The position numbers and the translations under genes are program-made. A stretch of DNA of 63,965 bases, counting the filler, from Ionaspis alba (Eukaryota): the NCBI GenBank assembly GCA_964255285.1. It is 3 parts of 3 records of this genome, joined end to end, with 100 filler letters (N's around TTAATTAATTAA, not from the genome) between each part and the next. Parts side by side here need not be neighbours in the genome. Positions count along the whole stretch, not along the records: positions 1 to 24,053 come from CAXUUL010000176.1; 2 more parts are not named here. One strand, given 5' to 3'. Below the pieces are notes generated by a model that saw only the letters and a list, made by a program, of their open reading frames with translations, was not told the DNA's origin and did not search any database. This document shows positions 303 through 2,094 of the stretch, piece by piece (position 1 is the stretch's first letter; every line of letters begins with the position of its first letter).

Positions 303-2094
303 CTACCATTCTCCGTCCCATGCCATAGAGGCAACGCCTGAGTATGGCTCCAAATGCAAAACTACACCCACCTGCTTAGTCTCCGCGAGTAGTCTTGTAC
401 ACTGGTTCTTATACGCATCGTCCGCTTTTGAACGGCAGACGAGATGAATGTCTTTGAGCGCAGGTAACTGAGAAGCCTTCTCAACGGCAAATGTACGAAA
501 CATGACAGCGAGAGCTTGTTTATAATCATCCGTTCCCTGCGAATCTATTGATAGCCGAGAAACCGAAGCAGGTATAAGGTCAACGATGGACAGCTCATTA
601 TTCTCCAATGCGTGATCCATTGACATATTGGTCGAAGATTCGTTTGGTATAGTAGCGTGACATGCAGCCGTAGAAATATTACATATCGCGATTTCGAGGG
701 GAAATTGGAGTTTTTGTAGACGTTGAAAACCACGCATCGATGTCTTGCCAGGATTAATCGAGCCGTGTAGTTCACGAATAGTAACAGAAAGTTCTTTCAG
801 ATGGCTCCCTACCTCCCGTTCGATAGCAGTCACGAATTTGCAAAGATCCCAGTCTCGGGGGCCGCCATGATCTTTGGTCGAATGAGAGTACCTAAAAATC
901 CTGAGGCGTTGGGTATGTTTGAGGAAGTCAGCAATAGCGATTTCGTCGATGCTACAGAACAAGAAATGAACTGCTTCTAAAGTCTCTCCGATGCCATGAA
1001 TTGGAGTCTTGGATGGGATGCTCTTGAGACTCTCACCCGAAGCTACGCAGCTATACACCATTTCGAAGCGTTAGCAGGAGTCTTTGCTATTAGTTGTAAA
1101 ACGATCTAAAGCGGGACCGGATCCTTTGAGCGTGGTATAGCAGGTTTGAGGGAAGCAAACGAGCCAGAAACGCTGTAAAGTGCTCTTTACGGGCACTAAT
1201 AGAGCGAAATGACGTACCTAGGTCCGCGAAAAGACCGCATGTGCGGCAGAGCCAGAAAAGGGCTCGCCCAATTCAAATCAAAGCTTTGCTGGGGTCCTAA
1301 TGAGACTGAGGTACCGAATTTGGTGGTCTCGGCAAGGCTGGGCCTGTTGTAAGGGAGATGCGATTGCTTGGTCTGTACGTCGGATTTGGAGCGTCAGCGA
1401 ACTATGAAGCGACGTATTTAAAAGGGAGTGGAGCAAGAATTGGGCATTTCTGAACGCCTGAATAGCGAATATGAGGCGGGTAGACAATCCAGAAACGCAG
1501 TCTTACGCCTTCGATAAATCGAATAGACGTACTTATACGTCGGTTTAGAGCGCTAGTAGAACTATTGATGGGTGGATAGAGCACCCAGATGGGAATGACG
1601 TGGTGTTTTCGAATGTCCGAAAAGCAGATAAAAGACAAGCAAATGGCTTGAAAAGGATTTCTAACGCTCTCAAGTTTCTTTGATAGAGCGAAAAGACGTA
1701 CCTTACGAATGACCACATCGATGAGCTTGTCTGTTGCCTCAAGTGGCTTCCAACATTTTGGTAGGATGAGCGTCTCGACATTGGGTAGGAGCGTTAAAAG
1801 AAAAGCAGCAGCATATTGTGAATAACGANNNNNNNNNNNNNNNNNNNNNNNNNNNNNNNNNNNNNNNNNNNNNNNNNNNNNNNNNNNNNNNNNNNNNNNN
1901 NNNNNNNNNNNNNNNNNNNNNNNNNNNNACGTAAAATCTTGGAAATGCGAGCGGAGCTTGTTGTGATGCTCGACGAATGGGGTGCAGAGTGCAAACAAAA
2001 ATTTACAGGTCAATGCCAGGCTCTCAAACCCCTCGGGCAAGGTGTATGTGATAATATCATCAAGGAGCTCGATAGGCAAACGAGTGAGCGCCAT
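303..2094 (-). CDS. F-box-like / LRR-like protein (3+ exons, interrupted by an assembly gap)
   Basis: N-terminal LTRLPIELLDDIITY is F-box-like. Introns 1701-1373 and 1217-1051 (GTACGT..YAG) join the ORF pieces in frame: ...VVIRK|TKQSHLPY...FLALPHMRSFRGPS|CVASGE... N gap at 1829-1928. Confidence 0.75.
1051..1701 (-). mobile_element. Three homologous introner-like intron units (1701-1533, 1532-1373, 1217-1051)
   Basis: Shared starts GTACGTCTTTTCGCTCTATC / GTACGTCTATTCGATTTATC / GTACGTCATTTCGCTCTATT. Similar lengths (169/160/167 nt), shared internal words (GCGTTTCTGG, TTTGCTT) and similar 3' ends (CGCT..AAA..GTAYA[AG]). Confidence 0.6.

Follow-up and report, generated by a model that had tools for sequence, protein, structure and literature searches.

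A low-copy family of long, probably gained introns with short inverted ends and a stacked pair in Ionaspis alba

Introduction

Where new introns come from is still an open question, and the homologous introns known from single fungal genes (same-gene duplicates) have been described without a tested mechanism. A gene for an F-box-like protein in Ionaspis alba raises this question within less than two kilobases, as it carries three long units that begin and end alike. A first, sequence-only reading had regarded them as three homologous introns of a decaying introner family that inserted repeatedly into this gene. Here, we ask whether these units are indeed related introns, whether they were gained, how far their family extends and by which route they may have spread. 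All coordinates refer to the analysed stretch of 63,965 nucleotides, filler included (the window), unless another locus is named.

The gene and its stacked introns

The gene is encoded on the minus strand and is interrupted by an assembly gap whose content can be read from an orthologous locus (L012):

303..2094, minus strand: F-box-like protein gene with ATG at 2094 and stop at 305-303; orthologues encode about 487 aa
1929..2094, minus strand: exon 1 as far as visible, including the F-box-like motif
1829..1928, minus strand: assembly gap of 100 N, equivalent to about 440 nt in L012 (1285-1724), where it holds the end of exon 1, a long intron D and the start of exon 2
1702..1828, minus strand: exon 2 as far as visible, with AG at its end
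1373..1701, minus strand: compound phase-0 intron of 329 nt, consisting of units A and B head to tail
1533..1701, minus strand: unit A, 169 nt, source of the donor; branch point decayed (1557-1552), end AA instead of AG; inverted ends 1701-1695 and 1541-1535 (6/7 Watson-Crick plus one G-U)
1373..1532, minus strand: unit B, 160 nt, source of the branch point (1398-1393) and the acceptor, internal consensus donor retained; inverted ends 1532-1526 and 1381-1375 (7/7)
1218..1372, minus strand: exon 3, 155 nt, ending in AG
1051..1217, minus strand: unit C, a 167-nt phase-2 intron with branch point at 1075-1070; inverted ends 1217-1205 and 1065-1053 (10/13 Watson-Crick plus three G-U)
303..1050, minus strand: exon 4, the last coding exon

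The assignment as an F-box protein is weak (Pfam F-box-like, E 0.0095, under the curated cut-off); the annotation of several named homologues nevertheless reads F-box protein, the nearest named ones being from lichen fungi. The units have the lengths and the 5' and 3' ends given in the sequence-only reading, and both introns follow an exonic AG, as stated there. Their number has to be corrected, though: A terminates in AA and adjoins B directly, and the three units thus form two introns.

Removal of A+B (329 nt) and of C from the RNA is predicted from the reading frame, since a single open frame results once both are taken out, and the spliced protein aligns to its homologues (22 aligned, of 58 found) with no gap at either junction. 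A [D1,2] stwintron was considered for A+B and rejected, as the corresponding 330-nt model shifts the frame whereas the 329-nt model keeps the frame open and is colinear. Another in-frame route is conceivable, in which B would be excised first and A would then be joined to an AG 6 nt further on, with the loss of two codons. Exon 2 is moreover open into A and part of B, with 99 codons before a stop (1402-1701); this in-frame read-through of A belongs to the window, while orthologues stop or shift earlier.

Two further observations concern the surroundings of the gene. Upstream, a 24-nt motif occurs four times at a spacing of 103-107 nt (2786-3123; copies 67-79 % alike), and a block further upstream (3513-5653) sits downstream of the gene in another locus (L022, 3529-5714), which indicates a local rearrangement.

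Shared ancestry of the three units

Units A, B and C share ancestry from end to end, a conclusion supported well beyond the splice signals. Their first 19 nt are nearly identical, differing at one (A/C), three (A/B) and four (B/C) positions, and global alignment yields 103/174 (A-B), 100/173 (A-C) and 100/173 (B-C) identical columns, that is, about 58 %, with z scores of 9.0, 7.4 and 6.2; none of 500 dinucleotide shuffles scored as high. The homology that had been claimed hence stands, as does its extension past the splice sites: when 20 nt at the 5' end and 30 nt at the 3' end are trimmed, the interiors still give z 3.5 (A-B), 3.0 (A-C) and 3.4 (B-C), values reached by 0, 1 and 2 of 500 shuffles. 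Under a stricter local alignment, the interiors of A-B are weakly similar (z 1.9; A-C 3.9, B-C 3.8). Consensus units, each built from six orthologous sequences, are 65 % (A-B), 57 % (A-C) and 65 % (B-C) identical, and their interiors reach z 7.2, 6.2 and 6.5. A profile trained on any two units recovers the third (E 5e-8, 1e-8 and 1e-6). No unit matches another in reverse orientation (z ≤2.2).

The exon flanks (30 and 60 nt on each side, respectively considered) are unlike between the sites (z 1.7, 1.8, 1.0 and 0.6), which rules out a duplication of exon plus intron. Plain local DNA duplication of one long intron by slippage, unequal crossover or repair-templated copying, with no mobile element involved, would agree with the tandem position of A and B and with B being closest to both other units. 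It is an improbable source of the set all the same, considering that homology ends at the intron borders and that A-B are no closer than B-C.

Anatomy of the units

Each unit starts with the donor, and the 7-13 nt at its beginning are complementary to those that directly precede its last two bases, giving the order AG, inverted repeat, body, inverted repeat, AG. In C, the inverted ends pair at 13/13 positions if G-U is counted, and those of B pair at 10-11/13 in the orthologues. All three units thus carry terminal inverted repeats of at least 6 nt, a criterion of DNA-transposon introners. As background served 164 motif-defined intron candidates from a screen limited to short introns by design. 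Inverted ends of at least 6/7 occur in none of them, including 0/21 with the same donor hexamer. The units measure 160-169 nt as compared to a candidate median of 63 nt (short introns only being admitted), and their branch points are 25-26 nt away from the unit end, where the candidates have a median of 18. An exonic AG precedes 5/5 members of the family (A, B, C and the introns E2 and E3 introduced below) but 17/164 candidates. Nothing more than this invariant AG is repeated on both sides, which is ambiguous as a target duplication by the passages of PMC9860276 that bear on it.

Gain on one branch

A, B and C are found at the same places in 12/12 orthologous loci from a metagenome scan (last exon 66-83 % identical), and so is the fourth long intron D (168-175 nt). 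In a quick tree that also contains 58 other homologues, the seven intron-bearing rows (the window plus 6 of the 12 loci) group together (SH-aLRT 100) on a stem of 0.26. Unspliced gene calls (ENA, Logan, JGI) include 14 matches at this position, ten of which run from exon 2 into unit A, one of these lying on a contig as long as that of L022, while the remaining four read through without it. Since these calls are unspliced, the full-length homologues that such sources contributed, 44 of 58, can be taken to lack the introns at the A/B and C positions; 21 of the 44 are on contigs >10 kb, and some of the shorter ones could be transcripts. Judged by these unspliced calls, homologues devoid of introns at these positions, which an insertion scenario had called for, exist, and these data support the introns of the F-box-like gene as gains on one branch. 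A stage with B only was not seen, all ten intron-bearing fragments starting with A-type sequence.

Going by their names, the homologues come in a scattered pattern from lichen fungi, Xylariales and Leotiomycetes; the viral contigs searched contained no homologue. Three distant paralogues (L079-L081, on contigs C344 and C126 of the assembly, G000) share 25-31 % identity and have open frames of 575-636 aa without a stop in the matched part.

Intron D occupies 1398-1566 in L012, and it is covered by contigs of run X1, in which the window is contained, so that D is present in the organism of the window. Its kinship to A, B and C finds no support (global z 0-1.9, end score z 1.2), and BLAST with D found nothing; a 14-nt word is common to D and C. 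For D, folding gives a long hairpin (z -2.65) that pairs the 5' end of the intron with the region of its branch point. One X1 contig (record 3, L012:1142-1790), with a depth like that of the gene's own contig, skips D and is probably a paralogue; its sequence was not found in the assembly.

Age and decay

Orthologous units are 76-91 % identical, compared to 70-84 % at four-fold sites. In comparisons with the window, the introns are slightly more conserved (0.78-0.91 versus 0.70-0.82), and among orthologue pairs excluding the window the two rates overlap; the copies diverge at about the neutral rate. Because divergence between units far exceeds that between orthologues, copying must have taken place well before the relatives split. 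The full unit length is retained in all orthologues. The branch point of A has decayed in 3/6 lineages, and the internal donor of B is intact in 6/7 sets, the exception being L019, which also has a frameshifting deletion in exon 2. Another orthologue (L018) has a premature stop.

A hairpin fold had been suggested as a check, and the answer is divided: in the window, A and B fold better than shuffled sequences (z -3.4 and -3.9), C less so (z -1.9), and in the orthologues the folding is not kept, with values for A, B and C from -1.8 to +1.4. A conserved fold is thereby ruled out, and a known RNA family was discarded as well, Rfam giving no match (best E 2.5). That the units are kept as functional RNA, or for alternative splicing at the internal donor, is very improbable. 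Their persistent length, the mostly intact B donor and the slight excess of conservation in comparisons with the window would agree with it; the Rfam result, the unconserved structure, the overlapping rates among the other orthologues, the decayed branch point of A and the absence of read-through of A in orthologues all speak against such a role.

Copies elsewhere in the genome

The genome-wide copies that one would look for in an introner family did not turn up: BLAST with C matches itself only, and pattern searches added one other gene. With two mismatches allowed, the 19-nt 5' pattern has 10 matches (control: 1), three of them being A, B and C; one of the seven others has a matching 3' sequence and is intron E2 of that gene. 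A 3' pattern gave 3 matches in the whole genome (control: 1) and missed B. The remaining whole-genome patterns were at control level, namely an internal 13-mer (28 vs 29), a branch-point pattern (4 vs 4) and another 5' pattern (10 vs 10). Across 872,176 bases, of which the window and another 590,000 were unselected, profile scans revealed no additional full-length copy and none between genes. Taken alone, this sample permits up to about 60-85 copies in 18.3 Mb, and the patterns argue for far fewer. The assembly (18.3 Mb, 1282 contigs) is fragmented and D itself falls into a gap, so hidden copies are possible. A weak profile match to the 3' part of the family (62026-62060, E 0.3-0.8) is probably due to chance.

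The gene that contains E2 is the following:

L009:1945-about 330 (G000:C937), minus strand: gene for a secreted HExxH-motif protein, unrelated to the F-box-like gene, with introns E1, E2, E3 and E4 of 156, 114, 93 and 162 nt

Removal of E1-E4 leaves one frame of 364 aa that is colinear with a named homologue; three homologues were found, and two unspliced ones read through the positions of E1-E3. Scored at end positions outside the splice signals, E2 (z 5.6) and E3 (z 4.5) resemble the family more than all 164 candidates do, although E2 had been chosen by its 5' end, so that only its 3' score is independent, and E3 came to light when the gene was read through. An exonic AG precedes both, and their interiors are unlike those of A, B and C. 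The end scores of E1, E4 and D are not above the candidates. E1 and E4 share homology with one another, one being reversed relative to the other (z 14.5), and show no relation to A, B and C (z about 0). E1 contains short internal repeats and the donor of E4 is non-consensus. BLAST with the intron region of this gene matches itself only. A 14-nt motif of E1/E4 has 37 matches in the whole assembly (control: 15); no further E-like intron was seen in those loci around the matches that were examined.

In what was searched, the family is accordingly of low copy number, with five members in two genes, all in sense orientation. The idea of a decaying introner family holds up as far as ancestry, gain, decay and two introns with the same ends in an unrelated gene are concerned, and finds no support with regard to membership of the high-copy elements.

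These results also bear on two rivals. Under plain duplication, the likeness of E2 and E3 would have to be chance or reflect an old common source, which is difficult to reconcile with two introns that exceed the whole background at both ends, and the inverted ends would be left without a reason; that no further full-length copy was found is in its favour. Alternatively, the gene might have been imported, introns included, from a fungus widely invaded by the element, so that copies occur in patchy accessory genes only. Both host genes are indeed accessory-like, judging from the scattered homologues of one and the three found for the other, the stem of the intron-bearing group is long, and two distinct orthologous alleles are broken. 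We nonetheless give import little credence: three or four insertions per gene would demand that the donor was extremely rich in them, a donor was not found, and the flanks are partly common with the orthologous loci, so any import must be old.

Comparison with known intron families

Collemare, van der Burgt and de Wit (2013; PMC3609843) define same-gene duplicates (SGD), introns of low copy number (LCI) and high-copy introner-like elements (ILEs). SGD and LCI are near-identical copies of ordinary length and folding energy, half of the SGD lack exon duplication, and LCI may be degenerate ILEs. The set described here resembles both classes in comprising homologous introns within one gene without exon duplication and few relatives in an unrelated gene, and differs from them in that its units are about 58 % identical, 160-170 nt long and equipped with inverted ends, two of them being fused. 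The strict SGD definition confines copies to one gene, and with E2 and E3 elsewhere the assignment shifts towards LCI. By number the set fits SGD and LCI, by length it may be ILE-like. The ILEs of Dothideomycetes are described, in the portions of PMC3609843 and PMC4457414 devoted to them, as long spliceosomal introns with predicted structure, gained positions and decay with age, and the latter source mentions genes with two gained ILEs. Gained positions and decay are shared features. [quoted passage not shown] By analogy with LCI as possibly degenerate ILEs (PMC3609843), a decayed introner may still be the origin.

According to the relevant passages of PMC9860276, an introner family comprises at least four introns that are similar at both ends, with similarity confined to the intron and no origin in paralogous genes. 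Here, five members are counted by their end scores and flanks are unlike, whereas the interiors of E2 and E3 differ from those of A, B and C. The same passages portray ascomycete introners as lacking inverted repeats or target duplications, and DNA-transposon introners (Fig. 2 legend) as carrying the 5' splice site and taking the 3' site from the target duplication. A donor at the element start, inverted ends and an AG outside the repeat on both sides recall the latter, which differ, as far as described there, in occurring outside ascomycetes and in producing locus-specific duplications of 3-9 nt instead of an invariant AG. Among the entries covered of its supplement, Lasallia pustulata is scored without introner, and four other lichen terms have no entry.

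Inverted ends as such are already known in fungal intron families, judging from the description by Fekete et al. (2021; PMC8469720) of sister stwintrons and cropped sister introns in Hypoxylaceae with inverted ends of 45-55 nt. Compared by that description, both systems comprise fungal introns that have proliferated and bear inverted repeats at their termini, along with a compound intron of two units, whereas the Hypoxylaceae elements are nested [D1,2] pairs with repeats of 45-55 nt and no flanking duplication, as opposed to 7-13 nt here. Nothing closer appears in the pertinent parts of PMC12130899, PMC5647799 and PMC7138796, and titles and abstract openings of the non-subscription literature name neither an introner family in lichen-forming ascomycetes nor a head-to-tail fused pair.

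Overall, the locus represents a variant of intron duplication as known from the same-gene and low-copy classes, set apart by its unusual ends and by the stacking of two units. Huff, Zilberman and Roy are said to have provided algal examples of DNA-transposon introners in 2016.

How the introns may have spread

That A, B and C are gained, homologous, extinct and low-copy introns is common to the different readings and very likely. For the route, we tentatively favour insertion at the DNA level of an intron-generating element that is now extinct, with a rough probability of 0.45. Such an element would have been short (about 160-170 nt), with its donor at the start, its branch point 25 nt before the end and inverted ends of 7-13 nt. 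In the ancestor of the clade, it would have inserted three times after an exonic AG into a previously intronless accessory gene, a 2-nt AG duplication supplying the acceptor as in miniature-transposon introners, and each insertion after AG would have been cleanly spliced out. DNA transposons are prone to local hopping, which might have led to the clustering in one gene. One insertion directly in front of an earlier copy would have created the stack of A and B; once the inner AG between them had become AA, A+B would most simply be removed in one step, the pair now presumably using the donor of A together with the branch point and acceptor of B. Related copies would have reached at least one unrelated gene before the element died, leaving copies that drift at about the neutral rate. 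We infer the splicing, the order of events, the DNA-level route and the local hopping alike.

The DNA route is favoured because the inverted ends lie inside the two AGs and because E1 and E4 form a reversed pair. The sense orientation of all five members and the lack of an intergenic copy in the scans count against it, as does the z of about 0 between E1 or E4 and the units A, B and C. The AG itself does not discriminate, for an AG on both sides is also what insertion at a proto-splice site would leave, as set out in the corresponding passages of PMC9860276, and the family may be too small and too old to display a target duplication.

An RNA route is possible, if somewhat unlikely. Here, an excised intron would have re-entered its own transcript or locus by reverse splicing at AG proto-splice sites, with reverse transcription and recombination fixing the copy; pairing would help to keep the two termini of the intron together, and one rarer event would have reached the second gene. 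This would readily explain copies in the same gene and the same orientation, always after AG, with one insertion exactly at an existing splice junction, and transposition within the same transcript has been suggested for half of the same-gene duplicates (PMC3609843). The mismatches in the inverted ends of A and C in the window are all G-U compatible, but 3/3 such changes have a chance of 1 in 8, and the better-than-shuffled folding of A and B in the window is set against its loss in the orthologues. The reverse-oriented E1/E4 pair would moreover stay unexplained, if it arose from the same process.

Within the favoured DNA-level reading, one may go further and view the locus as the fossil of a miniature DNA-transposon introner, with short inverted ends, an acceptor from a duplicated AG, splicing in either orientation and local hopping; in this specific form, we consider it unlikely.

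Significance

As the copies are old and few, the locus alone illustrates a known phenomenon more than it decides on a mechanism. Its value is that the case can be dated, that the borders are precise, that there is an outgroup without the introns and that the stacked pair documents an insertion exactly at a splice junction. The inverted ends translate into a clear prediction for younger copies in related genomes. If the fossil interpretation were true, ascomycete introners without such ends would have an exception, same-gene duplicates would be tied to a mobile element, and single accessory genes could be loaded with three or four introns whose copies are stackable. Two unrelated, formerly intron-poor accessory genes with several long gained introns each suggest that intron gain was strongly local.
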